Assembly: GCA_965231015.1 (NCBI GenBank)
Contig: OZ246408.1
Span: forward strand, 346,158-394,487
Reading direction: 5' to 3'
DNA: 48,330 bases
Origin: an uncultured Gammaproteobacteria bacterium
GTDB taxonomy: Bacteria > Patescibacteriota > Patescibacteriia > UBA9934 > CAZDDW01
Within the stretch, counting starts at the first letter, position 1, and every line of letters starts with the position of its first letter. The position numbers were made by a program, and so were the translations under genes. The notes beneath the pieces were generated by a model. That model did not search any database. It was given only the letters and a program-made list of their open reading frames with translations, and was not told the origin of the DNA. This document shows, piece after piece, positions 11,512 to 39,618 of this stretch.

Positions 11512-13523
11512 GTCATAGTGCCAATTATCTTTACGAACACGAACCGCAAGAGCAGGTTCAGGTTCGGCGAAAAAAAAGAATAGGTCTAAAAATCTTTTTG
11601 GTTCTTTTGGTCGTGGTTGTTTTGTATGGTTTGGGAGGAGTGGTTTACGCCGGTAAAATCGCTGCTCATGCCCTTGATGGAAAAGTGGCAACAGAAGAAG
11701 CCCAGAAGGCTTTGTTGGATTTGGAATTTGATGAAGCCCGGAGCAAGCTTTCCGAGGCTGAGACCAATTTTTTAGCAGCTGCCGATGGAACAAAATACTT
11801 TGTACCGTTGCGAATTGTGCCATGGGTTGGTGATCAGCTTGAAGCCACGGAAGCAATTTTTCGAGCTGGCTCAGATACTGCAAGTACGCTTGAGGATTTG
11901 ATTGAGGTGGCCGAGGATGTGGTTCGTTTGGCTGTGGGAAGCGAAGCCTTGGTGGAAGGACTTGATGTCAGCGAACAACTTAGTTGGTACGATTTATCTC
12001 CGGAAGTAAAGAAAGCTATTATCTTACGCTTTGCCTCTTCGGCATCTGATCTTGAGTTAGCTCAACTAAACATTGATCTAATCTTGCGTGATCTTGAGGA
12101 ATTACCGGAAGAAAGTTTAGTTGGCCCTCTTCGCGAGGTGTTGGATCCGTTTGTAGATCAGCTGCTAGTAATTGATGAGGCCTTGGAAACCTTAATCCCA
12201 GTGTCGTTTGTTTTGCCGTCTTTTGCCGGTCTAGACCAAGAACAACATGTTTTGGTTTTGTTTTTGAACAATGCAGAAATGCGACCGGGCGGTGGGTTTA
12301 TTGGATCGTACGGGATCGTTTCCTTTTTAAACGGAGAAATGACTCGCTTTGAAACGCACGATGTAATGGATGTCGACGGGCCGGCCGCGGCCTTTAGAAC
12401 CCAGTATCCACCAGAGCCGATCCAGCGATACTTGGGAGAGACTGTTTGGTATTTTCGAGACAGTAATTGGTCACCTGATTTTGCGGTTTCTAGTGAAAAT
12501 GGCTTAAAAATTTTTCGGGCTTCCACAGCAGATGCTCCGGAGGGAACCGTTCTTAAACAGCCGTATGTTCAATTTGATGCAGTGATCGGTATTACACCTG
12601 ATTTTGTGGCTGATCTGCTGACCATTACCGGTCCGGTTACAGTGGAAGACCAAACTTTCACTTCAGGTAATATTTTTGAAACATTAGAATATGCGGTTGA
12701 GTATGGGTTTGATGATAAAGGGATTCCTTTTGATCAGAGAAAAGAGATTCTGGGCCCCTTGGCAGATCAGATTCGGGATGGGTTATTTAAGCTGCCATCC
12801 AGTGAATGGGGTAAGGTTTTTGAGTCTGTATCCGAGGCGCTAAGCGAAAAGCAATTTGTGATTTACAGTACTGATCCAACTACTCACGAAATCATTGCCA
12901 GTAAAGATTGGGCCGGTCGGGCAATTCCAGGCGAGGTTGATTCACTCATGGTGGTGGACGCTAACCTGGCAGCTTTAAAGACCGACGTCTCGGTCGACAA
13001 ATCGATAGACTATTCAATCAGTGGAATGAGCGAAGGTAGATACGTAGCCAAAGTGACAGTTACGTACGACCACTTCGGAACCTTTGATTGGAAAACGACT
13101 CGTTACAGAACCTACACCCGGGTTTACGTTCCTTCGGGCAGTGAGTTAATCCGTTATGATGGATTACTGGCTGATGATGCCCTGCGCAATCCATCCCTTG
13201 CTCCAGGAATGGCGGAAGTTGGTGAGGAGCTAAGCTTTACTGTGTTTGGAGGATTCATTTCTGTGGAGCCAGGAGAAACCGGATCGTTTACATACGAATA
13301 CTTATTGCCAGAGAGTGTGACTGGTGCTGTCGAAGCAGGGATGTACGAGCTAGATGTGGTCAAACAAATCGGATCGGACAAACATGAGCTAACCCTGAAT
13401 CTTGATTTTGACAAACCGGTCAAATCAGCGTACCCTTCCGAAGAGCCAAGTGAGTTCGGGGATGATCAATATTTATTGAACACAAAATTAGATCAGAACC
13501 TTGAATTCACGGTGAGCTTTTGA
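11508..13523 (+). CDS. DUF4012 domain-containing membrane-anchored protein
   Basis: 671 aa with an N-terminal TM. FLNNAEMRPGGGFIGSYG is the DUF4012 hallmark. Its ATGA start overlaps the upstream GT2 stop. Confidence 0.7.
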   Translation: MSHSANYLYEHEPQEQVQVRRKKRIGLKIFLVLLVVVVLYGLGGVVYAGKIAAHALDGKVATEEAQKALLDLEFDEARSKLSEAETNFLAAADGTKYFVPLRIVPWVGDQLEATEAIFRAGSDTASTLEDLIEVAEDVVRLAVGSEALVEGLDVSEQLSWYDLSPEVKKAIILRFASSASDLELAQLNIDLILRDLEELPEESLVGPLREVLDPFVDQLLVIDEALETLIPVSFVLPSFAGLDQEQHVLVLFLNNAEMRPGGGFIGSYGIVSFLNGEMTRFETHDVMDVDGPAAAFRTQYPPEPIQRYLGETVWYFRDSNWSPDFAVSSENGLKIFRASTADAPEGTVLKQPYVQFDAVIGITPDFVADLLTITGPVTVEDQTFTSGNIFETLEYAVEYGFDDKGIPFDQRKEILGPLADQIRDGLFKLPSSEWGKVFESVSEALSEKQFVIYSTDPTTHEIIASKDWAGRAIPGEVDSLMVVDANLAALKTDVSVDKSIDYSISGMSEGRYVAKVTVTYDHFGTFDWKTTRYRTYTRVYVPSGSELIRYDGLLADDALRNPSLAPGMAEVGEELSFTVFGGFISVEPGETGSFTYEYLLPESVTGAVEAGMYELDVVKQIGSDKHELTLNLDFDKPVKSAYPSEEPSEFGDDQYLLNTKLDQNLEFTVSF

Positions 13524-14544: not shown

Positions 14545-15669
14545 ATGGTTATCGGAATCGATGCCAGTGCAGCCAACCGGGAAAAGAAAACCGGGGTGAA
14601 CTGGTATGCCTACAACCTGATCAATGCCCTCCAGGAGGTGGACCGGGGTGGACACCAGGTTGTCTTGTATTTAGACGCACCTCCCCGCGATGATATTTTG
14701 CACTGGGGAAATCATTTTGAGCTCAGGGAATTGAAGTGGTCCGGAAAGGGTTGGAATACCTTCCGGCTAAGCTGGGAGATGTGGCGGAATGCCCCTGAAA
14801 TATTATTTGTACCGGCCAATAAAATTCCACCAGCCCATCCTAAAAATACAGTGACCACTATTCACGACATTGGGCCGGATCGTATTCCGGAGATGTATGA
14901 TCCGCGGATTCGTTCCAAGGTAAAATCAGCCACCCGCCAAGCTATAAAACGAGCGGGTCACCTGCTAACAGTTTCTGAATTTACCAAGCAAGAGCTCGCG
15001 GAGGTGTACAAAGTACCAGAGTCTAAAATGACAGCAACTCCGTTGGCAGCTGATACCAACAAGTTTAAACCATTGGATCAGACCAAGATCGATAAAATCC
15101 TGGCCAAGTACAGGCTTGGTCGATCGTATTTTCTCTATGTTGGCAGATTGGAAGCTAAGAAAAATATTCAAACTCTGCTTCGGGCGTTTGAGATTTTCAA
15201 GGGTAGTCGCGGATTAGGGGATCCGTACCAATTGGTATTGGCCGGAACTCCGGGTTACGGATATGATCGGTACAAAAAGTTCATCAATCTTTCTAAAGTC
15301 AAAGATTCAATCATTGAACTTGGTTTTGTGCCGGATGAAGATCTACCAGGATTAATGAACGGGGCTTACGCTTACACGTTTCCGTCTTGGTATGAGGGTT
15401 TTGGAATTCCTGCGGTAGAATCGTTCGCTTGCGGTACCCCGCTCATAGCTTCTGACATAGGGGCTTTACACGAAGCCGCCGGAGATGCGGCCTTGTTTGT
15501 TTCTCCGCGTGAGCCTGAAGCCTGGGCCGCGGCCATGGCTCGGTTGGCTCGGGAGCCTAGGTTGGTTGAAGAGTTGAAAGCGAAGGGATTTAATCAGGTA
15601 GAAAAATTTAGCTGGCGTACCACGGCGGAACAAACCTGGAAAGTGTTATCAACAATTGACAAAGCTTAG
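14545..15669 (+). CDS. GT4-family glycosyltransferase (Glycos_transf_1)
   Basis: 374 aa. Contains YVGRLEAKKN and PSWYEGFGIPAVESFACGTPLIAS (EX7E region). Confidence 0.8.
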   Translation: MVIGIDASAANREKKTGVNWYAYNLINALQEVDRGGHQVVLYLDAPPRDDILHWGNHFELRELKWSGKGWNTFRLSWEMWRNAPEILFVPANKIPPAHPKNTVTTIHDIGPDRIPEMYDPRIRSKVKSATRQAIKRAGHLLTVSEFTKQELAEVYKVPESKMTATPLAADTNKFKPLDQTKIDKILAKYRLGRSYFLYVGRLEAKKNIQTLLRAFEIFKGSRGLGDPYQLVLAGTPGYGYDRYKKFINLSKVKDSIIELGFVPDEDLPGLMNGAYAYTFPSWYEGFGIPAVESFACGTPLIASDIGALHEAAGDAALFVSPREPEAWAAAMARLAREPRLVEELKAKGFNQVEKFSWRTTAEQTWKVLSTIDKA

Positions 15670-15688
15670 TGTGTTATAATTTTTAGGT

Positions 15689-16462
15689 ATGAATGATCTG
15701 ATTCGAGAATTGAACCACATGGGTCTAAGTGAGAAAGAGGCCGCTGTTTATTTGGCGGCTATGGAGCTTGGTCCCTCAGTTGCTCAAGACATTGCCAAAA
15801 AAGCTAAAGTGAATCGAGCGACCACCTACGTGATGATCGATACTTTAAAGACACGTGGTCTGATGAGCTCGTTTTCTAAGGGTAAGAAAAAGTTTTTTTC
15901 TGCTGAAACTCCAGAGCGTTTGATGAGCATGGTGCGTCATCAGCGACAGGAACTTGAGGATAGGGAAACGGAACTAAGTAAGGTCATGCCACAACTGATG
16001 GCTCTCTTTAACGTGGAAGGAGTTAAGCCGCAAGTGCGTTTTTTGGAAGGGATTGAGGGACTGAAGACCATTCAGTCAGAACTTGATTCTCTTAAAGGAG
16101 AAGGAGTTCAAATTTTATCTTGGGACGACGCTTACGAATTTATTGATCGAGTTATTGAAGATCATGTTCAGAAGCGTATGAAAAGTTTCGAAAGCAACAG
16201 GACTTCTTTCCGATCAATTGTTGCGGTAAAAGACGAGAAGAAATTTGCCCAAGTTAAATATCCGGACTCAATTAAAATTAGAAAAGTCCCCTTTGATCAA
16301 TTTCCCATTCACGGCGAGATTACCATTAAAGAGGATAGAATAACCTTCTTTTCTTACAAGTCGTCCTTGTTGGCTATTGTGATTGTTAGCCAGGTGTTGG
16401 CTGACACGGCCAAAGCCTTGTTTGAATTAGCTTGGGTGGGAGCAGAAAAGAAAACAGGATAG
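15689..16462 (+). CDS. TrmB-family transcriptional regulator
   Basis: 257 aa. LSEKEAAVYLAAMELGPSVAQDIAKKAKVNRATTYVMIDTLKTRGL is the typical TrmB HTH. Confidence 0.75.
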   Translation: MNDLIRELNHMGLSEKEAAVYLAAMELGPSVAQDIAKKAKVNRATTYVMIDTLKTRGLMSSFSKGKKKFFSAETPERLMSMVRHQRQELEDRETELSKVMPQLMALFNVEGVKPQVRFLEGIEGLKTIQSELDSLKGEGVQILSWDDAYEFIDRVIEDHVQKRMKSFESNRTSFRSIVAVKDEKKFAQVKYPDSIKIRKVPFDQFPIHGEITIKEDRITFFSYKSSLLAIVIVSQVLADTAKALFELAWVGAEKKTG

Positions 16463-16493
16463 ACAAGGTGGACTCGTCTATCCGTAGTAGCTA

Positions 16494-16520
16494 CGACTGT
16501 CTCGTTTCAGTCGTTTTTTT
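16494..16520 (+). terminator. rho-independent terminator of the TrmB-like gene
   Basis: CGACTG-8 nt-CAGTCG followed by seven T. Confidence 0.7.
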
Positions 16521-16546
16521 GCTTCAGCGCCGGCTTGAGCCGGCTG

Positions 16547-16720
16547 TCAACATCCGCCACAGGCACCGCACATGTGGCCGGCTCCGTTGAATACGAAGGC
16601 TCGCATGACGCCGCCGTGGTGGTGGGGATCGTTGCCGTCACCACAGTTTCTCAGAACACCCTTGGAAAGATTTTCTTCGCACTCGGTCAGGGCGATCTGG
16701 TTCAGCCTGCTTGAACTCAT
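16547..16720 (-). CDS. 57-aa His/Cys-rich peptide ending ...HHHGGVMRAFVFNGAGHMCGACGGC (candidate RiPP precursor or metallopeptide)
   Basis: Internal ATG at 16720, preceded by AAGGAGAC with 7-nt spacing. Has its own promoter. TGA at 16547-16549 is followed by hairpin GCCGGC-TTGA-GCCGGC. Confidence 0.5.
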   Translation of the reverse strand: MSSSRLNQIALTECEENLSKGVLRNCGDGNDPHHHGGVMRAFVFNGAGHMCGACGGC

Positions 16721-16812
16721 GGCCTTGTCTCCTTTCCAGGAGACTCGGTGTCGTTGCCGATCTCCTGCCTGTCTTGGATGTTGTTTATTTTTTGTCACGA
16801 ATGCGACAGGGT

Positions 16813-16841
16813 AATTTAGCATAAACATGTAATGTTGTCAA
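16813..16841 (-). promoter_or_regulatory. sigma70-like promoter for the 57-aa peptide
   Basis: Minus strand: TTGACA (16841-16836), 17 nt, TAAATT (16818-16813). The 5' UTR holds hairpin GTCTCC-TGGAAA-GGAGAC (16744-16727), which includes the SD. Confidence 0.5.
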
Positions 16842-16901
16842 GGAAGATAAACATGGATTTTGGCTAAAATAGGTAGAATTGGCTTAAAATGTTGCCGACC
16901 C

Positions 16902-16930
16902 TTGACAATATTTGATTCATATGTTAATTT
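16902..16930 (+). promoter_or_regulatory. divergent sigma70-like promoter
   Basis: TTGACA (16902-16907), 17 nt, TAATTT (16925-16930). The -35 context CCTTGACAA is the same as in the minus-strand promoter. Confidence 0.45.
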
Positions 16931-16937
16931 GCCGAGT

Positions 16938-17073
16938 TCCCGTTAAGGCGGGAATATGAGGGGGGGGAGAGTGAAAAAGTCCGTTAGTGTGAGCCATGCT
17001 TGCAAATGAGCGGGCTTTTTCAATTTATTTGGAAATCAAAAACCCCTGAAGAAATTCTCTTCAGGGGTTTTTG
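16938..17073 (+). ncRNA. candidate ~135-nt small RNA (promoter to terminator unit), unclassified
   Basis: Runs from the predicted start after 16930 to the 10-bp terminator at 17043-17067. Hairpin TTCCCG-TTAAGG-CGGGAA. Only a 17-codon frame without a clear SD. Confidence 0.3.
17036..17073. terminator. bidirectional rho-independent terminator
   Basis: CCCCTGAAGA-aattc-TCTTCAGGGG with flanking A-run and T-run. Lies downstream of the 371-aa ORF on the minus strand. Confidence 0.75.
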
Positions 17074-17118
17074 GATACCCTCGAACGCTAGTTCAAGGGT
17101 GAAAAGGTAGGAAAAGAT

Positions 17119-18234
17119 CTAGAGCTCGATGCCGTCGTCCGGCACCGTGCCCTGGTACTCGGGCACAGTGCCGGATCGGCTCGGCTCGGTACCGACAGCG
17201 CGTCGTTCCTGCTCGGCTCGCAGGTGCGAGTCGAAGGCATGGAAGAGCGCCATGGCGTCGCGCTTGCGCCGACCCGAGTTGGCGGCGGAGGTTCCGAAGG
17301 CGATCAGTTCGCGTCGGATCTCCGATTCTTTGCCCAGGTCGTCGATGGCGAGTGCCACGAGCTCGGCCGAACTCATCTCGGCGAACCGACAGCGTCCAGC
17401 CTCAGCGATCTGTTCAGCCAGTCGCCGCTTGAGCTGGTCGTGCTCGTTGAAGCATTGCTGACGCTCTGCTCCTGTGAGCCGCTCGCGCCCGGCGGCACGG
17501 CGCATCTCGTTGATGCGCCTGTGTGCCTTGTCCTTGCTCGTCGAGAGCAAGGCGGTCAGGATGTCACCGGGGCTCGCCAGCACGGCTTCGGTGGTGAGAC
17601 CGGCTCCGGCGAGCGGGGCGATGAACTCGGCCGCGTCTCGCTGCTGTTCGGGCAGCATTGCCCGAAACCGCCGTAGCAACCGGTTGACGTCCCGCTTGGT
17701 GCCTTCATCGGCACGCAGCTTCGCGGGCTTGGCCGGACGGTGCTTGCGCGGCTTGGCCGGCTTGCGGCCGACGTAGGTCTTCATCTCCTCGCGCAGGAGT
17801 CCGCACGCGCTACCCCGCTTGCCGCGCTTGGAGCGGCGCTGGCGCTGACCGCGTCCGTCGTAGCTCGAACGCGTGCCGCGGGGGGCGGCGCTGATCACCT
17901 CATGAAGCTCGGTTTCGAGCTCGTTCACGAGCTGGTCGTAGGCCAGACCGTCGCGGAGGTCGTCGTCGAACTCGAACGGCTGGACCGCGAGCTCGAACTC
18001 GCCCGCGGTGTCGTCCTCGAGTTCATCACCGAGGATCCAGGTCTCGAGCACGTCCCGGTTGGGCTCGTGCTCGGGCTCTTCCTGAGCCGTGATCTCGAAC
18101 GGGTTGAAGATCTGACGCGTTCGCCAGATCTCCCGGTAGTCCTTTCGCCACTCGTTCCAGCTCTGCTGCTGGAGCTCGGCCGAAGGCAACCTTCCGATCA
18201 ACATCCACTTCTGCTGGTTCAACAAATTTTTCAT
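17119..18234 (-). CDS. hypothetical 371-aa protein (acidic N-terminal part, Arg/Lys-rich centre, helical C-terminal part)
   Basis: Longest frame in the islet, with pronounced GC3 bias. ATG at 18234 (MKNLLNQQKW) is preceded by AAAGGAAA. No catalytic motif recognised. Confidence 0.7.
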   Translation of the reverse strand: MKNLLNQQKWMLIGRLPSAELQQQSWNEWRKDYREIWRTRQIFNPFEITAQEEPEHEPNRDVLETWILGDELEDDTAGEFELAVQPFEFDDDLRDGLAYDQLVNELETELHEVISAAPRGTRSSYDGRGQRQRRSKRGKRGSACGLLREEMKTYVGRKPAKPRKHRPAKPAKLRADEGTKRDVNRLLRRFRAMLPEQQRDAAEFIAPLAGAGLTTEAVLASPGDILTALLSTSKDKAHRRINEMRRAAGRERLTGAERQQCFNEHDQLKRRLAEQIAEAGRCRFAEMSSAELVALAIDDLGKESEIRRELIAFGTSAANSGRRKRDAMALFHAFDSHLRAEQERRAVGTEPSRSGTVPEYQGTVPDDGIEL

Positions 18235-18313
18235 CAAGTTTCCTTTCGGCCGTGAGCGGCCAGGGACCCCATTGGCTGGTCCGGATCGACATCCTCGTCT
18301 TAGAGGCGTCGCG

Positions 18314-18349
18314 TTAAAAAACAAAAAGGCACCCCAAAAACGGTGTCCT
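18314..18349 (-). terminator. terminator-like hairpin between the 36-aa ORF and the 371-aa ORF
   Basis: Minus strand: AGGACACC-loop-GGTGCCTT followed by TTTGTTTTTT. Confidence 0.4.
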
Positions 18350-18461
18350 CCCTTAAGTTAGCAATTTGCCATGCGGAAACATCGAATTCGGATTCAATAT
18401 CTCTGCGCGGCGGGGAAGGGGTGAACCTTCCCCGAGAGATTGGAACCGAGCAGGTTCCAAT

Positions 18462-18572
18462 CTAACTGACCGCCGTGAGGATTGCCGGCAAGGCGATCAT
18501 GATACTAACGGCGATGATTGCCGTCAGACCAGTGATCGACCGGTGGCGATTTTCCATCTCTTCGTTGCTCAT
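18462..18572 (-). CDS. 36-aa hydrophobic peptide MSNEEMENRHRSITGLTAIIAVSIMIALPAILTAVS (single TM)
   Basis: Not in the ORF track because it is under 60 aa. ATG at 18572 is preceded by GGGAGGAAG. TAG at 18462-18464 is followed directly by two hairpins (18439-18461 and 18412-18433). Confidence 0.5.
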   Translation of the reverse strand: MSNEEMENRHRSITGLTAIIAVSIMIALPAILTAVS

Positions 18573-18603
18573 GTCTTCCTCCCGAGGCGGTGTTGTTTGA
18601 GTT

Positions 18604-18805
18604 CCGCCCATGACTCTGAGGAGCTCCCCCGTGCTAAAGACGGGGAAGAGGCACAGTGACCGTTACAAAGTAACAGGTGTATGCCGTGATGATCAGGTGT
18701 GTGGCACAAGTTAGCGTTGCCAAGTTGTACCACTCGATCATCGCCGTGTCCTTTTAGCATAGCCATCCGGACAACGGATTAACCCTTCCTCAGAGTCATG
18801 AGCGG
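18604..18805 (-). promoter_or_regulatory. structured leader closed by an 18-bp long-range helix
   Basis: 18788-18805 pairs with 18604-18621: 17 Watson-Crick pairs plus one G-U, but only in the minus-strand sense. About 166 nt are enclosed, with internal hairpins. It ends about 30 nt before the peptide ATG. Confidence 0.45.
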
Positions 18806-18816
18806 AAAATGTAATG

Positions 18817-18941
18817 TAAAAAGCTGATTACTGGGTTTAATCGGGGAATAAACACAATAATCAGCTCTTTCTCTCTCTCCCCAAGTCTATTTTTATCCGG
18901 CTTCGACCCCGGATTGATGCTAAAAATAGCAATTATTTTGA
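18817..18941 (-). ncRNA. promoter-proximal stem-loops ending in a terminator-like hairpin (small RNA or attenuator)
   Basis: Stem-loop at 18887-18929 (CTATTTTTA/TAAAAATAG with inner ATCCGG/CCGGAT). A 9-bp hairpin AGCTGATTA/TAATCAGCT (18822-18866) is followed by a T-run. Confidence 0.3.
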
Positions 18942-18947
18942 CTGTTC

Positions 18948-18976
18948 AATATAGCATAAAAACAGACTTTTGTCAA
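18948..18976 (-). promoter_or_regulatory. sigma70-like promoter driving the islet-3 minus-strand transcript
   Basis: Minus strand: TTGACA (18976-18971), 17 nt, TATATT (18953-18948). Confidence 0.55.
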
Positions 18977-19211
18977 GCCTCAGACACAAAAAATATGCTA
19001 AAATTAGATAAATTTGCTCGGTTATCTTTCTGAGAGAACCACTCAGCCTCGGACATGCAAAATGTCAGGTTGAATCTTAGCCTTGTTATGATGCTCGCCG
19101 ATCAAGAGTCAATGTTATTAGTCTTTTAAGGCAATTTTGTAATCGGTAAGCAAATTTCTCTCAGAAAGGATACCCTCGCAGTGGGAATGAAACAGGAGGG
19201 AAGCGCGGCAA

Positions 19212-19240
19212 TTGAATTGTTAGCCTTAATCAGCTATAAT
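19212..19240 (+). promoter_or_regulatory. sigma70-like promoter of holB (near-leaderless)
   Basis: TTGAAT, 17 nt, TATAAT. The ATG at 19250 lies 10 nt after the -10 element. Confidence 0.5.
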
Positions 19241-19249
19241 TTAGTCATT

Positions 19250-20224
19250 ATGAGGCTTCAAAATAACAAGCCCCGTCTTTCTGACGAAAGTAAACGGAGC
19301 AAATCAATTATCGGTCATACTAAAATTTTAGATTTGTTGCAGCGTGGGGTTAAAAATAACTCTGTGGCTCATGCCTATGTTTTTTTAGGGCCGGCTCGAA
19401 TTGGAAAAAACACCGTGGCCAAGTGGTTAGCTCGTCAGCTGCTGAATGACTTTGAGGGTTCTTTTGAAGCCCATCCAAACGTTTCTTTGGTGCGTCGTGA
19501 ATACGATGAAAAAAAGAAAAAATTAAAATCCAAGATTTCCATTGAGCATATTCGGGCGTTGCGTGAGCGGCTAGGAATGTCTACTTTCGGACAAGGTTGG
19601 AAAGTTGCAATTATTGAAGAAGCCGAGACCATGAGTTTAGATGCGGCTAACGCACTTTTAAAAACACTGGAAGAGCCAAGTGGTCAGACCACAGTAATAT
19701 TAATTGCTTCAAGCGAAAACGGAATTCCAGCCACCATCTTTTCTCGAGCTCAAGTGATTTATTTTAATCTGGTGCCAAACCAAGAAATCAAATTAGCTTT
19801 TCAGGACGATGTTTTAGTGGATGAGCTGGTCGCCCACGCCGCTGGCCGGCCAGGTGTTGCAATCAGTATGAAAGATGACGCTGAAGATTTTGAGGCTCGT
19901 CGGCAAACTGAGCAGGAGTTCTGGCAGTTGCTGGAGGGAACGCTTTCGGAACGAATGGCAGCAGCAGCTCGGTTACCAAAGGGTGTGTCGGCTCGAGAGG
20001 ATGTGCGAGCTAAATTGAATCGGTTTGAGGTTAAGTTGCGCGAGTTGCTGTTGATGGCCAGTGGTTGTGATGAACTGGTAAGCTCAGCTCAGGCTAAACG
20101 TTTGGCGGGCAAGGATTCTAATCATTGGAAAAAAGCTTTGCAGACATTGAGTGAATGTCGATCCGCTCTTGAGGCCAATACTAACCCACAACTTGTGCTT
20201 GAAAACTTTCTTATCAAACTATAA
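19250..20224 (+). CDS. holB: DNA polymerase III subunit delta prime
   Basis: Contains HAYVFLGPARIGKNT and KVAIIEEAETMSLDAANALLKTLEEP. Start chosen at 19250 because the track start at 19181 lies upstream of the promoter. Confidence 0.75.
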   Translation: MRLQNNKPRLSDESKRSKSIIGHTKILDLLQRGVKNNSVAHAYVFLGPARIGKNTVAKWLARQLLNDFEGSFEAHPNVSLVRREYDEKKKKLKSKISIEHIRALRERLGMSTFGQGWKVAIIEEAETMSLDAANALLKTLEEPSGQTTVILIASSENGIPATIFSRAQVIYFNLVPNQEIKLAFQDDVLVDELVAHAAGRPGVAISMKDDAEDFEARRQTEQEFWQLLEGTLSERMAAAARLPKGVSAREDVRAKLNRFEVKLRELLLMASGCDELVSSAQAKRLAGKDSNHWKKALQTLSECRSALEANTNPQLVLENFLIKL

Positions 20225-35028: not shown

Positions 35029-35604
35029 ATGGATAATCTTGTCGCAGATTGCGATCAAAAAACCGATTCAGAACTTGTGCGTCTCACTCTGGGAAACCAG
35101 ATATTTTTTCAGTGTCTAATGAAACGGTATGAAGAATCGTTAAAGAGGTACATTCGAAGAATATCGGGTTTTTCTGAGACTGAGGCCGAGGATATTCTTC
35201 AAGAGGTCTACATTAAGACTTTTTTGAATCTTAATGATTATGATAAAAGTTTAAAGTTTTCCTCCTGGATTTATCGGATCACTCACAATGAGGTGATTAG
35301 TCAGTATCGAAAAATTAAAGCCCGACCTCAAGGGAATTCAATCAAGGTTGATGAAGGGTGGTTGAATAATTTGCCCGGGGAGTTGGATTTGCAAGAAGAG
35401 ATTGAGAACAGATTTGATATTGAGAAAGTAAGGCAAGCTTTAAATAAAATTAGGATTAAATATAGGGAGGTAATTATCCTCCGGTTTCTTGAAGAGAAGA
35501 GTTATAAGGAAATTTCTGATATTATTAAAAAGCCGGAGGGAACTGTGGCGACTTTGTTGAACCGTGCCAAGAAACATTTAGCCGAGCAAATCAAAAAAGG
35601 ATAA
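35029..35604 (+). CDS. ECF-type RNA polymerase sigma factor (sigma-70 family, regions 2 and 4)
   Basis: Contains EDILQEVYIKTFLNL, FSSWIYRITHNEVISQYRK and SYKEISDIIKKPEGTVATLLNRAKKHL. Confidence 0.85.
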   Translation: MDNLVADCDQKTDSELVRLTLGNQIFFQCLMKRYEESLKRYIRRISGFSETEAEDILQEVYIKTFLNLNDYDKSLKFSSWIYRITHNEVISQYRKIKARPQGNSIKVDEGWLNNLPGELDLQEEIENRFDIEKVRQALNKIRIKYREVIILRFLEEKSYKEISDIIKKPEGTVATLLNRAKKHLAEQIKKG

Positions 35605-35608
35605 ATCT

Positions 35609-36352
35609 ATGAGCGAACAAGATTTGAGTGCCAAAGTGCTCGAAACAATCAAAGAGAAAAAGTTGAAGCCACGAGCCAAGTGGCACTTTGTGGTTCGTGA
35701 AATTTTGATTATCGTGGCTAGTGCGGCCTTGTTGGTGGTAGGTTCGATTTCTTTTTCAGCCATGATTCATCGATTCCAGTACAACGATTACGGGTTGTAT
35801 GCTCATCGGGGTTCAGATTTAGCTCTGTTTGTCTTGGCTACCATTCCATATTTCTGGATTTTGGCCACGGTAGCCTTCCTGGCTTTACTTTACTATATTT
35901 TGAAAAACACCAAGAAGGGTTATCGTTACCGACTTCCTGTAATTGTGATTTCTTCTGTGGTCGGTAGTTTCATTCTTGGAGGAACCCTGTTTATTTTTGG
36001 GGTTGGTCATCAGACTGACAGGATTATGAATCAGCATGTTCCAGGCTATGACAAGATAGTTGATCACGGTCGTGGTTTTTGGTTGAATCCGGAAGATGGA
36101 TTGCTGGCCGGTGAAATAATTGAAATGTCGCCGGAAGAAACCTGGTTCGTGGTCGATTTACACGGTGAACAATGGCTGGTTTATGTTGGAGAAGCGGAAA
36201 TTGTTTTGTTTGACGGAATCAAACAGGTTGAGGTTGGTTACAATTGTATGATGATAGGTGATATGCTGACCCAGGGTGAGTTTACTGCCGAGCAAGTTCA
36301 CGTTCGGAATTTGCCTGGCAAACCATCGGGTCCACCATCATGTTGCGAATAA
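35609..36352 (+). CDS. multi-pass membrane protein, likely cognate anti-sigma factor
   Basis: 247 aa, 4 nt downstream of the sigma gene. Four TM helices followed by a C-terminal soluble domain. Confidence 0.5.
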   Translation: MSEQDLSAKVLETIKEKKLKPRAKWHFVVREILIIVASAALLVVGSISFSAMIHRFQYNDYGLYAHRGSDLALFVLATIPYFWILATVAFLALLYYILKNTKKGYRYRLPVIVISSVVGSFILGGTLFIFGVGHQTDRIMNQHVPGYDKIVDHGRGFWLNPEDGLLAGEIIEMSPEETWFVVDLHGEQWLVYVGEAEIVLFDGIKQVEVGYNCMMIGDMLTQGEFTAEQVHVRNLPGKPSGPPSCCE

Positions 36353-36353
36353 T

Positions 36354-36611
36354 ATGACCAAGTGGGTGGTTTACATGGTTCGGTGTTCAGATAAGAGTTT
36401 GTATACCGGAATTACCAATAATCTTGAAGCTCGAATCAAACAACACAATCTAGGAAAAGGGGCAAAATATACTCGATCGCGTTTGCCGGTTGAGTTAATT
36501 TGGTTCGAGCGGAAACGGAATGAGAGTTACGCCCGAAAAAGAGAAGCAGCAATCAAAAAAATGACTCGAGCAGACAAAGAAAAGCTACTTGCAAACAATT
36601 TGCATTTGTGA
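36354..36611 (+). CDS. GIY-YIG nuclease family protein
   Basis: 85 aa. WVVYMVRCSDKSLYTGITNNLEARIKQHNLGKGAKYT matches the GIY...YIG pattern. Confidence 0.8.
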   Translation: MTKWVVYMVRCSDKSLYTGITNNLEARIKQHNLGKGAKYTRSRLPVELIWFERKRNESYARKREAAIKKMTRADKEKLLANNLHL

Positions 36612-36617
36612 TATAGT
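36589..36617 (+). promoter_or_regulatory. promoter of the zur operon with overlapping 6-3-6 palindrome (candidate Zur/Fur operator)
   Basis: TTGCAA, 17 nt, TATAGT. Palindrome TGCAAA-caa-TTTGCA at 36590-36604. Confidence 0.4.
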
Positions 36618-36623
36618 GCTCGT

Positions 36624-36995
36624 GTGTTTGAGCAAATAGTTAAACAAGCTGGATACAAGATGACTCGTCCACGGCGAGTTATTTTGGATTTGCTTACAAA
36701 ATCGCACCGTCCGAGTTCGGCTCAAGAGCTTCACGAACAAGTCTCGGTAATTGACCTAGTGTCGGTTTACCGAACCCTAAGTCTTTTCGAAGAACTCGGG
36801 ATCGTTCAACGGGAGCCGGTCTCCGGCACCGCTCGGTTTTATCTAGCCGACTGTCAGCATCATCATATCACTTGTACCAAATGCGGTCGTAGTCAGTGTG
36901 TGCCATGCAAACATCGCTTCAATTCAATTCAAGGTTTTACCAATATTAATCATCAACTAACTTTAACCGGACTTTGTAGTAGGTGTGCAAAGTAA
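36624..36995 (+). CDS. zur: Fur-family metalloregulator (probably Zur)
   Basis: 123 aa. Contains TRPRRVILDLL and CxxC pairs (CTKCGRSQC...CSRC). Heads a zinc ABC transporter operon. Start is GTG 36624 or ATG 36660. Confidence 0.75.
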   Translation: MFEQIVKQAGYKMTRPRRVILDLLTKSHRPSSAQELHEQVSVIDLVSVYRTLSLFEELGIVQREPVSGTARFYLADCQHHHITCTKCGRSQCVPCKHRFNSIQGFTNINHQLTLTGLCSRCAK

Positions 36996-36996
36996 T

Positions 36997-37119
36997 ATGT
37001 GCATGTTTTGCGGGAATCAATGTGGAGGAACGATTGATTACTTAATTGCCTTTAGCCCACCCTTTATTATTTGGGGTTATTACAAATTAGTTAACTTAAA
37101 ACATAAGTTAAGAAAATAG
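36997..37119 (+). CDS. 40-aa Cys-rich membrane micropeptide MCMFCGNQCGGTIDYLIAFSPPFIIWGYYKLVNLKHKLRK
   Basis: Not in the ORF track. ATG lies 1 nt after the zur stop, and its TAG lies 1 nt before the znuA ATG. CxxCxxxC followed by one TM segment. Confidence 0.5.
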   Translation: MCMFCGNQCGGTIDYLIAFSPPFIIWGYYKLVNLKHKLRK

Positions 37120-37120
37120 T

Positions 37121-38110
37121 ATGAAAAAGTTTATCGGACCAGCAATTCTGGTCGGAGTCATGGCAGTAGTTTTAGTAATTGGTTACGTCTTTCTTATCAA
37201 ACCAGTCACACAAGAAGGAAATAATCTAAAAGTAGCCGCTACGATTTATCCCCTGGCCGATATTGTTGAAAATATAGCTGGAGATAAGATCGAAGTCGTA
37301 AATATTGTACCACCCGGAGCCAGTCCTCACACTTTCGAGGTTACTCCATCCTCGGTCAAAGAACTTCAGGGGGCTGAAATTATTTTTGCGATCGGCGACC
37401 CGCTTGATACTTGGACGGCTGATCTGTTGTCAGCGGTTGATGGAACAGAAGTCTTAACTGTTGATGACGGAATTGATCGACATGAATTTCAGTACACCCA
37501 TCATCATGAGGAAGCTGATCATGAAGAAGACGAACATGAACATGAGGAAGCCGATCATGAAGAGGAAGAACATGGGCATGGGCACGAACACGAAGATGGA
37601 GAATTGGATCCACACTATTGGCTTTCGACAAATAATGCTAAAATAATTGCTGGGAACGTGGCAGCTGAATTAAGTTGGCTTGATCCTGAAAATGCAGAAG
37701 TTTATCAAAGTAACCTCTTGGCTTATCAAGCCGAACTTGATCAGGTTCATGAAGAGATTGAATCTATCCTAAAGAGTTTATCTTCAAGAGAATTAATCGT
37801 CTTCCATGAATCTTGGAATTATTTCGCTGATGAGTTTGATCTTGAGATTGCGGGAGTGTTCACAACCTCACCGGGAAAAGAACCAACTCCATCAGAGTTA
37901 GCTGAGTTGCATGATACCGCCGAGGAGCACGGAATTACGGCTGTTTTTTCTGAGCCACAGCTTTCTCCAGAAACCATTCGTCCGTTTGTTGAAGATTTAG
38001 ACCTGGAATTGTACGTTCTAGACCCACTTGGTGGCATCGATGAGCGTGACAGCTTAATCAACACCTTAAAATACAATGCCCAAACCATCCAACAAGCACT
38101 CGGTAAGTAA
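37121..38110 (+). CDS. znuA: zinc ABC transporter substrate-binding protein with His/Asp/Glu-rich loop
   Basis: 329 aa. Loop HHHEEADHEEDEHEHEEADHEEEEHGHGHEHEDGE, then DPHYWLS. Confidence 0.85.
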   Translation: MKKFIGPAILVGVMAVVLVIGYVFLIKPVTQEGNNLKVAATIYPLADIVENIAGDKIEVVNIVPPGASPHTFEVTPSSVKELQGAEIIFAIGDPLDTWTADLLSAVDGTEVLTVDDGIDRHEFQYTHHHEEADHEEDEHEHEEADHEEEEHGHGHEHEDGELDPHYWLSTNNAKIIAGNVAAELSWLDPENAEVYQSNLLAYQAELDQVHEEIESILKSLSSRELIVFHESWNYFADEFDLEIAGVFTTSPGKEPTPSELAELHDTAEEHGITAVFSEPQLSPETIRPFVEDLDLELYVLDPLGGIDERDSLINTLKYNAQTIQQALGK

Positions 38111-38810
38111 AGAGGCTCTGCGGGTAAAAAACGTTAGTGTCTTTTATGGTAACTATCCAGCCGTCCAGAAGATAAATTTCACAGTTGAAAAAGGCGAAGT
38201 GGTTGCCATAATTGGACCTAATGGATCAGGCAAGTCCTCGTTGCTAAAAGCAATCCTGGGCTTGATTGAGTTTAAGGGTAAAATTGATGTTTTAGGACAG
38301 CCTGTAAAAAAAGTCTTAAAAGAAATTGGCTACGTTCCTCAAAGGTACAACTTTGATGCTAGTTTCCCACTAACAGTAGAAGAATTTTTAAGACTGTCTT
38401 TACAAAAGGGAAACGAAGATCAGATGGAGTATGCACTCAAGGAGGTTGAAATGACAGATTTTCGAAACAAGATGTTGGGTGAATTGTCGGGTGGTCAATT
38501 GCAAAGAGTCCTAATTGCCCGGGCATTATTGAACAAGCCGGAAATATTATTCCTGGATGAGCCGACAGCCGGGATTGATATGGAGGCAGAGAGGAATTTT
38601 TACGAGCTTGTTAAACACTTGAATGACGAACATGAATTGACCATTGTTATGGTTTCTCATGAGGTGAACATGGTTTACAAATTTGCCGACCAGGTTTTGT
38701 GTTTAAACAAGGATCTAATTTGCTTTGGAAAAACCAAGGAGGCAGTTACCAAGGAGGTGATGGAAAAACTCTACGGAAAGGAGGTAAAATTACAACACCA
38801 TAAGCACTAA
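38076..38810 (+). CDS. znuC: zinc ABC transporter ATP-binding protein
   Basis: Walker A GPNGSGKSS, signature LSGGQLQRV, Walker B ILFLDEP. Overlaps znuA by 35 nt. Confidence 0.85.
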   Translation: MPKPSNKHSVSKEALRVKNVSVFYGNYPAVQKINFTVEKGEVVAIIGPNGSGKSSLLKAILGLIEFKGKIDVLGQPVKKVLKEIGYVPQRYNFDASFPLTVEEFLRLSLQKGNEDQMEYALKEVEMTDFRNKMLGELSGGQLQRVLIARALLNKPEILFLDEPTAGIDMEAERNFYELVKHLNDEHELTIVMVSHEVNMVYKFADQVLCLNKDLICFGKTKEAVTKEVMEKLYGKEVKLQHHKH

Positions 38811-38811
38811 C

Positions 38812-39618
38812 ATGGAAATCTTGGAATTATTACAATATCCGTTTATTCAACGAGCTCTGGTTGCAGGGCTGGTTTTAGCAGGAGTTTTGTCTCTGCTTGG
38901 GGTGTTTGTGATTTTGCGTCGCATGGCTTTCTTTGCTGATGGGATTGCTCATGCCTCATTAGCGGGAGTAGCCATCGGGGTTGTTTTTTCCTTTAATCCT
39001 CTTACAACAGCGGTAATCGCAACGGCCATAATTGCTGCCTTGATTTTCTTGCTTGAGCGGCGCTTTAATTTAGGCTCTGATGCAGCCATTGGTATTTTGT
39101 TTACTTCTGGTATGGCTCTTGGAGTACTGCTCATTAGTTTGACACCGGGTTATCAGCCGGAACTCATTAGTTTCCTTTTTGGAAATATTCTGTCTATTGC
39201 CAATAAAGAACTTTGGATTCTGATAATAATCAGTATACTGGTTGCCCTGTTCGTTTTTATAAAACTCAAGCCTCTTGTTCTGGTTAGTTGCGACGAAGAG
39301 TCAGCTTACTTATCTGGAGTCAACGTTGTTTGGTTGCAGTTTTTTCTGTATATAATTACCGCTGTTGCCATTGTTCTTGGAATCAAACTACTGGGAATTA
39401 TCCTGGTTAGTGCCTTGATTATTACTCCGGTAGCTGCCGCTAAAGTTTTAGCTCGTTCCTTTAGGTCTCTTTTGGTCTATTCTTTGTTGTTGGCTGAATT
39501 GATAATGTTGATCGGATTAACGCTTTCGATTTATCTAGACTGGCCCACTGGACCAACCATTGTTCTTTCTGGTACAGTAATATTCATTCTTGTTGGTTTA
39601 GTTAAGAAGATAAAATAG
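38812..39618 (+). CDS. znuB: zinc ABC transporter permease
   Basis: 268 aa, ABC-3 family pattern with about 8 TM helices. Confidence 0.85.
   Translation: MEILELLQYPFIQRALVAGLVLAGVLSLLGVFVILRRMAFFADGIAHASLAGVAIGVVFSFNPLTTAVIATAIIAALIFLLERRFNLGSDAAIGILFTSGMALGVLLISLTPGYQPELISFLFGNILSIANKELWILIIISILVALFVFIKLKPLVLVSCDEESAYLSGVNVVWLQFFLYIITAVAIVLGIKLLGIILVSALIITPVAAAKVLARSFRSLLVYSLLLAELIMLIGLTLSIYLDWPTGPTIVLSGTVIFILVGLVKKIK

Follow-up and report, generated by a model that had tools for sequence, protein, structure and literature searches.

The 48,330-nt stretch of DNA analysed here (positions 346,158 to 394,487 of contig OZ246408.1, assembly GCA_965231015.1; hereafter the window) carries on its minus strand a gene for a peptide of 57 residues rich in histidine and cysteine. 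It converges with a plus-strand gene for a transcription regulator of the TrmB family, and upstream of it lie a divergent promoter with a candidate small RNA, a bidirectional terminator and an island of GC-rich genes whose operon leader contains a structured RNA of 206 nt (Table 1). The peptide gene had been singled out by an initial annotation, prepared by a model from the letters of the window. It is a genuine protein-coding gene for a soluble microprotein under purifying selection, and it belongs to a previously undescribed family of 48-75 residues which is confined to a small clade of Uhrbacteria-like bacteria of the Candidate Phyla Radiation (CPR).

A selected gene for a 57-residue microprotein

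The open reading frame (ORF) lies where the initial annotation had placed it, and the peptide quoted there is the exact translation of 16720-16547. An in-frame ORF of 93 residues was considered and rejected: its ATG falls inside the promoter, between the -35 and -10 elements, and the upstream stretch has indels of 8 nt and 2 nt in comparison with the closest relative, locus L002, so that the start giving 57 residues is the correct one. Contigs from two independent microbial-mat metagenome runs cover positions 15500-20000 at 44-46x with zero differences and cross the junctions, which excludes an assembly chimera.

The peptide had been described as an orphan. Six further small ORFs of 48-75 residues were found on metagenome contigs of related, Uhrbacteria-like CPR bacteria, which brings the family to seven in all public data searched; it is nevertheless restricted to a narrow clade and corresponds to no library family. 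A word-indexed search of 5.8e9 proteins returned one homologue (P0002), a search via the neighbouring genes a second in locus L007, and a full HMMER scan of 1.84e9 representative proteins with a three-sequence profile three more small proteins of 48-65 residues. These homologues carry the identifiers P0002 and P0005-P0008, and the seventh member (75 residues) was read from locus L104. Profile searches with the peptide gave no new relatives in GTDB genomes and only duplicates of L015 in metagenomes of the Joint Genome Institute, and holB as a query for further relatives yielded nothing useful. Literature searches retrieved nothing on this locus, the peptide family or the island.

Across the seven loci (window, L002, L007/L013, L014, L015, L019 and L104) the annotated frame alone is open in every case, and each of the other frames contains stops in most loci. 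Between the window and L002 the 32-codon core has a synonymous divergence (dS) of 0.73 and a nonsynonymous divergence (dN) of 0.07, that is, a dN/dS of 0.10; in more distant comparisons the synonymous sites have reached saturation, and the proportion of nonsynonymous differences (pN) is still 0.27-0.42. The invariant Gly-Ala-Gly is written GGA or GGT, then GCC, GCG or GCT, then GGC, GGA or GGG, with third positions free to vary. The initial annotation had treated the ORF as a genuine stand-alone small gene, naming the lack of any homologous ORF conserved at the protein level as grounds for abandoning it, and the constraint on the core bears the annotation out.

These patterns also bear on an extremely improbable alternative, in which the transcript is a small RNA whose GC-rich, structured region contains the ORF only incidentally. 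Such a reading would draw on a leader and 3' untranslated region (UTR) about as conserved as the coding sequence, on hairpins conserved at both ends and on the lack of expression data for the locus. It is contradicted by three-periodic substitutions, by the conserved ATG and Shine-Dalgarno (SD) sequence, by invariant amino acids encoded by varying codons and by the absence of an Rfam match. A structured non-coding RNA in place of the ORF was rejected on the codon periodicity, and a type I toxin because the peptide is not hydrophobic.

Expression signals and the convergent TrmB-family gene

The promoter proposed in the initial annotation, TTGACA-17-TAAATT, scored 10/12 in a promoter scan, in a region with six promoter-like sites against 1.9 expected. 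Its architecture recurs in 7/7 homologous loci as TTGACA-17-TAnnnT preceded by TGn, with divergent spacer sequences. The transcription start site (TSS) would lie near 16806, giving a leader of ~85 nt, as annotated, in the window and of 69-116 nt across the seven loci. L002 and L014 retain the inverted repeat at the predicted TSS, with G-U replaced by A-U; the L007 subgroup lacks it, and in L015 a different 5' hairpin stands in its place. It could be either a 5'-terminal stem-loop acting as an mRNA stabiliser or a protein operator; the presence of an unrelated hairpin at the same place in L015 favours a role at the RNA level.

The hairpin which the annotation had drawn over the SD sequence was likewise recovered, and SD-overlapping hairpins recur in two sequence forms. 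In the window, GTCTCC (16744-16739) and GGAGAC (16732-16727) flank TGGAAA and form a 7-bp stem with a GGAA loop, at -14.6 kcal/mol and a z-score of -2.6. The hairpin is identical in L002 (-14.1 kcal/mol) and has another loop in L014 (-17.6 kcal/mol, z -5.6), so that a stable hairpin including the SD is conserved in relatives. In a second subgroup, formed by L007, L019 and L104, an unrelated hairpin (CCAGG..CCUGG or CCAG..UUGG) runs with its 3' arm into GGAGG.

The gene is monocistronic, having its own terminator after the ORF and a convergent next gene. A leader peptide or attenuator upstream ORF was rejected, given that terminator and the lack of a downstream gene on the same strand. The three hairpins of the 3' UTR are kept in L002, and in L015 other complementary sequences replace them. 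Taken together, this anatomy would be that of a strongly transcribed, stable and translationally damped small mRNA. Because the middle hairpin doubles as the terminator of the TrmB-family gene, the two convergent mRNAs are predicted to overlap at their 3' ends by ~58 nt.

The TrmB-family gene lies convergent to the peptide gene in all seven loci and is the sole neighbour conserved in each, in a comparison which takes in lineages with TrmB proteins of only 61% identity. Between the window and L002 the protein retains 98% amino acid identity at a dS of 1.68 (dN/dS 0.01); as a side observation, such extreme constraint points to a regulator which is global and essential for the clade. This strict adjacency, kept while all other island cargo varies, together with the constraint on the regulator and the transcript overlap, is what speaks for a regulatory microprotein. 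The peptide would then bind and modulate the regulator or another protein, using His and Cys for structure or redox sensing, and/or the convergent transcripts would regulate each other. In the same direction, the TSS repeat TGTCGC-N4-GTGACA resembles TATCAC-N5-GTGATA, the site of archaeal TrmBL1. We regard this reading as somewhat unlikely: synteny simply inherited within a narrow clade may account for the adjacency, no comparable small ORF accompanies the distant TrmB loci (28-34% identity), the interaction is putative, and the variability of the TSS repeat across lineages is easier to reconcile with an RNA stem-loop than with an operator.

Table 1. Coordinates of features at the locus, numbered from the first letter of the window; +/-, strand; a point marks a feature of both strands
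Feature	Position	Strand	Remarks
TrmB-family transcription regulator gene	15689..16462	+	Pfam PF01978, E 2.9e-11; convergent with the microprotein gene
3' UTR of the microprotein gene	16457..16544	-	Three stem-loops; the first is GCCGGC-TCAA-GCCGGC, 16544-16529
Intrinsic terminator of the microprotein gene	16483-16457	-	GGATAGAC..GUCUAUCC and U-tract
Middle 3'-UTR hairpin, ACGACTG..CAGTCGT	16514-16493		Doubles as plus-strand terminator of the convergent TrmB-family gene
Microprotein coding sequence, 57 residues, His/Cys-rich	16720..16547	-	Stop TGA 16549-16547; residues 1-21 variable, 22-57 conserved core
SD-sequestering hairpin, GUCUCCU-GGAA-AGGAGAC	16726..16745	-	SD GGAG 16732-16729, 8 nt before ATG
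Inverted repeat at predicted TSS, TGTCGC-ATTC-GTGACA	16793..16808	-	Exact match unique in the window
Sigma-70-type promoter of the microprotein gene	16813..16841	-	-35 TTGACA 16841-16836, 17-nt spacer, -10 TAAATT 16818-16813, TG 16821-16820 (TGc extended -10)
Divergent promoter	16902..16930	+	TTGACA 16902-16907, 17 nt, TGt-TAATTT to 16930; extended -10; mirrors the microprotein promoter (inverted repeat)
Candidate small RNA, ~85 nt	~16937-17025	+	5' hairpin, purine-rich stretch GGGGAGAG, terminator-like long hairpin, invariant loop GUGUGAGCCAUGCUUGCAAAU
Bidirectional terminator	17037..17073	.	Perfect 16 bp, 100% complementary; between the 371-residue gene and the small RNA candidate; conserved in L002 and L015
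GC-rich ORFan gene, 371 residues (361 in the source call)	17119..18234	-	GC content at third codon positions (GC3) 0.83, against 0.41-0.49 in host genes
Single-pass membrane microprotein gene, 36 residues	18462..18572	-	MSNEEMENRHRSITGLTAIIAVSIMIALPAILTAVS (MSNEEMENRH...); first island gene, unannotated; differences from L002 mostly synonymous
Structured RNA, 206 nt, island operon leader	18602..18807	-	21-bp closing stem, four internal hairpins; ~130 nt downstream of the promoter
Island operon promoter	18948..18976	-	TTGACA-17-TATATT, TG present; 11/12; identical in L002

The GC-rich island and its structured RNA

The host is a CPR bacterium close to Candidatus Uhrbacteria, its glycyl-tRNA synthetase (GlyRS) being 77% identical to that of an Uhrbacteria metagenome-assembled genome. 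Several assembled-genome records titled 'uncultured Gammaproteobacteria' (among them L007, CAZDDW010000001.1; L104, CAYZPO010000003.1; and L025) show CPR/Uhrbacteria-like gene order and proteins, and their labels are probably wrong. The window carries housekeeping genes, among them L10/L12, TsaD, glycosyltransferases, DUF4012, MreB, holB, RRF, GlyRS, TIM, tRNAs, an extracytoplasmic function (ECF) sigma factor, znuABC and a histidine kinase, and at the Rfam gathering score it returned tRNAs only. Within this set, positions 35029-39618 of the plus strand carry the ECF-type sigma factor, a downstream gene of 247 residues (possibly an anti-sigma factor) and then a znuA/ABC/permease zinc-uptake operon.

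Between holB and the TrmB-family gene, in all six lineages with enough upstream sequence, the peptide gene is preceded by a minus-strand island of anomalous composition (~17119-18620 in the window, 1311-7773 in L013, ~7500-12300 in L104 and 320-2438 in L015). The window, L002 and L015 have homologous cargo in their islands, and that of L007/L013 and of L104 is unrelated; the L013 island alone comprises ten ORFans with GC3 values of 0.62-0.99. Relatives of the 371-residue ORFan among the 5.8e9 proteins were itself and L002 only; L015 has a homologue of 459 residues, and none was found beyond the clade. Its dN/dS against L002 is 0.32 and it had no Pfam, PHROG or PADLOC match. In scans of the surroundings with Pfam, NCBIfam, PHROGs and PADLOC, the TrmB, holB and GT4 neighbours were matched and the island proteins were not. 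As for the first island gene, the N-terminus of its 36-residue membrane microprotein heads, in L015, a Cys-rich protein of 171 residues.

The dS of the 371-residue gene (0.90) can be set beside 1.15-1.84 for flanking genes. The island has thus diverged together with the genome (dS ~0.9), and its GC-richness is old and maintained rather than transient. Ordinary amelioration does not readily explain a GC3 above 0.8 in a genome of 43% GC, with a GC3 of ~0.42, despite a synonymous divergence near 1. The peptide gene has a GC3 of 0.66 in the window and of 0.62-0.68 across lineages, between island genes (0.71-0.99) and host genes (0.36-0.49). This intermediate value, found in all lineages, and the constant position of the gene at the island edge are consistent with cargo of a foreign or mobile GC-rich element, in which case the peptide would serve the biology of the element itself (maintenance, exclusion or host interaction) and not the physiology of the host; differing content between subgroups and the ORFan nature of all island proteins point the same way. 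Such an origin is nonetheless unlikely. Neither integrase nor repeat boundaries nor matches to phage, plasmid or defence-system families were found, the RNA motif has no exact match in viral contigs, the island co-diverged with the genome, and the peptide is retained even where the cargo has been replaced.

The 206-nt RNA stands at the island start in the five lineages with that part sequenced, and in every case the gene for a small single-pass membrane protein follows closely. The leader which contains it (18560-18945) folds far better than its shuffles (z -9.8). The RNA is 90% conserved among three species (L002 7777-7982; L015 84-286), and a covariance model finds it in L104 as two tandem copies (11843-12027 and 12040-12230, minus strand) and in L007/L013 as two copies (in L007 9423-9648 and 9661-9867, minus strand). 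In the resulting alignment 96% of cells are paired, and both sides have changed in 32/75 pairs compared with 2-6 in slid controls. Rfam 15 at E<=10 gave no match to this RNA, and for the island only terminator-like noise; an exact-motif scan of viral contigs returned 0 matches. Readings as a retron, a miniature inverted-repeat transposable element or an omega-RNA were rejected: there is no reverse transcriptase, TnpB or IscB, the RNA has a single copy in the window, and its internal helices covary. The 206-nt RNA is put forward as a candidate for a new class of cis-regulatory RNA or riboswitch in CPR bacteria.

In its first ~125 nt (18815-18945, minus strand), before the 206-nt RNA, the island transcript has a GGGGAGAGAGAG stretch, two hairpins and, at 18870-18818, a terminator-like hairpin of 25 bp followed by U5; this element may act as an attenuator or be a small RNA in its own right. 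On the plus strand, L002, L015 and L014 all retain the hexamers of the divergent promoter, although the spacer of L014 is different, and fold comparison found one compensatory pair in hairpin 1 of the small RNA candidate.

It is highly doubtful, if conceivable, that the microprotein and the TrmB-type regulator form, together with the 206-nt RNA and the small membrane proteins, one clade-specific functional module in a hyper-GC ORFan island, possibly an RNA-sensed metal or host-interaction system, with the peptide as a new His/Cys metallopeptide or as the precursor of a new class of ribosomally synthesised and post-translationally modified peptide (RiPP) whose maturases hide among unrecognisable ORFans.

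Conserved residues, putative function and known systems

The alignment of the seven members divides the peptide in two: an N-terminal part which is variable, indel-rich and acidic or polar, and a conserved C-terminal half with the core [VI]L-x2-[H/C]-x4-[D/N/T]-P-x-H-x-G-x(3-5)-[A/G/Y]-[F/V]-x-[F/M/R/S]-[N/S]-G-A-G-[H/R]-(M)-C. Column 26 is Cys or His in 7/7 members and one Cys follows GAG[H/R] in 7/7; His34 and His49 are present in 5/7, both being lost in the same two members, which like L015 have a His at column 30.

This division runs counter to the RiPP precursor suggested by the initial annotation, in which an N-terminal leader would be cut at a Gly-Gly-type site and a Cys-bearing core modified by enzymes encoded elsewhere, with a thiazole, a thioether or a methanobactin-like metallophore as possible products. 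It is the supposed leader that evolves fast and is rich in indels, and the supposed core that is conserved, and the recognition leader of a RiPP precursor is usually not its least conserved part. The HHHGG junction read as a double-glycine site is a lineage-private feature and not conserved: other members have HHRGG or QHQGG against HHSGA, QHKGY, ETKGK and MSRGV (QGG, SGA, KGY, KGK and SRG at the site itself), with a single invariant Gly. Nor does the triple-Cys tail define the family, since CGACGGC is confined to the window and L002; the C-termini elsewhere are HMCGPGG, HMCGAFGGIK, HCVPTCGLH and RCIQIGL, leaving one invariant Cys. The recommended check against RiPP-precursor hidden Markov models (HMMs) gave no match in NCBIfam or Pfam.

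The absence of an adjacent maturase, protease or exporter, noted in the initial annotation, extends across the 48-kb window and all seven loci, in which no YcaO, radical SAM, MNIO, LanB/C/M, C39-ABC or protease gene was found. The sole conserved neighbour is a regulator. The adjacent ORFans of ~400 residues have no homology between subgroups, and the one modelled (AlphaFold2, AF2; mean pLDDT 50.8, too poor for a fold search) is predicted to be disordered in its N-terminal half and helical in its C-terminal part, which does not look enzyme-like. On the other side stand the small size, the polar N-terminal half and the Cys-bearing C-terminus; the LTxxEL-like stretch and GG shared by the window and L002; the possibility in principle that neighbouring ORFans are novel enzymes; and an inspection that covered 48 kb of a genome of ~1.0 Mb. 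On balance a RiPP precursor appears very unlikely, and the alternative given in the same annotation, a small metal-binding peptide, fits the sequence pattern better.

Ligand-type residues, a composition rich in His, Cys, Asp and Gly in a Cys-poor proteome and a predicted compact beta-hairpin core make a metal- or thiol-binding protein the best fit. We therefore lean, tentatively, towards a cytosolic microprotein of this kind whose translation would be gated by the SD hairpin. Its N-terminal third would be a variable, acidic, disordered tail, and its C-terminal 30-35 residues a short helix followed by a beta-hairpin (VMRAFVF-NGAG-HMCGAC). The predicted fold would group Cys/His26, His34, His49 and Cys51, joined in this lineage by Cys54 and Cys57, and together these residues could either coordinate a metal ion of borderline or soft character, such as Zn, Ni or Cu, or form a reactive thiol site. 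Such a small protein might buffer metal, serve as a chaperone or partner another protein in a metal-dependent way; the 7-bp hairpin would hold down its synthesis until temperature, a factor or an RNA opened the stem.

As regards composition, the family has 8.2% His and 4.5% Cys as compared with 1.9% and 0.4% in 9,772 host residues from the window (~4-fold and ~11-fold), although the seven sequences share ancestry and such statistics overstate their independence. His and Cys together make up 7.7-16.9% of every member, and the variable tails are likewise rich in His, Asp and Glu, e.g. EHHDYDDHGTD in L015. In the AF2 model of the peptide, residues 13-26 form a helix and the NGAG turn joins the strands of a beta-hairpin (38-44/50-55), at low confidence (pLDDT 47) and likewise too poor for a fold search.

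Shared ancestry and the low-confidence model are not the only points which weigh against a metal- or thiol-binding role under hairpin control. Of the four ligands proposed, two are missing in L019 and in L104, the spacing between ligands differs among members, and the L104 member is more divergent than the rest and is without NGAG. Metal-binding families (HMA, zinc ribbon, metallothionein) gave no match in Pfam, NCBIfam or PDB sequences, and the znuABC genes lie 20 kb from the peptide gene with no link to it. As regards the hairpin, it has one mismatch in L015 and in the second subgroup covers the SD in part only, and no RNA-seq runs containing the locus were found.

The interest of the peptide lies in its being a selected, strongly promoted, His/Cys-rich microprotein which is kept beside a near-invariant regulator in an extremely Cys-poor proteome (0.4%). 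CPR bacteria, or Patescibacteria, have tiny genomes with many unannotated genes, and the peptide offers an easily synthesised target for metal or redox handling or host communication in this group. The 'orphan' is moreover one element of a conserved module which unites a structured RNA without an Rfam match, a membrane microprotein, hyper-GC ORFans, the peptide and the TrmB-family regulator, an unusual combination.

The family matched none of the libraries searched. In Pfam and NCBIfam the one match of the peptide at E<=1 was to endonuclease VIII, at 12.7 bits, and is put down to chance; PHROGs and PADLOC matched neither the peptide nor its homologues nor the island proteins, and PDB sequence searches with three- and six-sequence profiles returned chance matches only, with E above 1. 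Comparison with known systems was made feature by feature. Double-glycine RiPP and bacteriocin precursors (class II bacteriocins, lanthipeptides, NHLP/Nif11) are alike in their 50-60 residues, polar or acidic N-terminal half, Gly-rich junction and, for the window copy, Cys-bearing C-terminus. They differ from a peptide whose GG is not conserved and whose N-terminal half varies; the peptide matches no HMM, and its monocistronic gene lies beside a regulator, with neither a maturase nor a C39-ABC exporter in the vicinity. Methanobactin MbnA and the MNIO (DUF692)-modified Cys peptides (bufferins, TglA) share the short length and Cys residues which could ligate metal, but no MbnB/MbnC or DUF692 gene occurs in the 48-kb window or the loci of relatives, and the peptide has one conserved Cys and neither a signal peptide nor a DUF2282-like domain.

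Two further likenesses concern the C-terminal motif. CopZ, Atx1 and other HMA-domain metallochaperones carry an MxCxxC loop, and the nickel superoxide dismutase NiSOD an N-terminal HCxxPCGxY hook. The beta-strand of the peptide followed by G-H-M-C-G-A-C resembles the HMA beta1-loop, and the hook has the same H-C-x3-C-G spacing as HCVPTCGLH, the tail of L007. Here, however, the motif lies at the C-terminus of a 57-residue protein which ends just after it, with no ferredoxin-like or four-helix fold behind, and its spacing differs between members. HMA PF00403 gave no Pfam match at E<=1 and no PDB sequence matched; NiSOD, moreover, needs N-terminal processing, for which the peptide offers no evidence.

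Zinc-ribbon and zinc-knuckle microproteins and bacterial metallothioneins (SmtA, MymT) have features which set the peptide apart: it lacks two CxxC knuckles, its Cys content (2-9%) is far below that of metallothioneins, half of the ligands are missing in two members, and no solved structure matched. Cys/His-rich microproteins as a kind of thing are already known, and with those just named the peptide shares its small size, its Gly-rich composition and its Cys/His ligands in two clusters ~15-25 residues apart.

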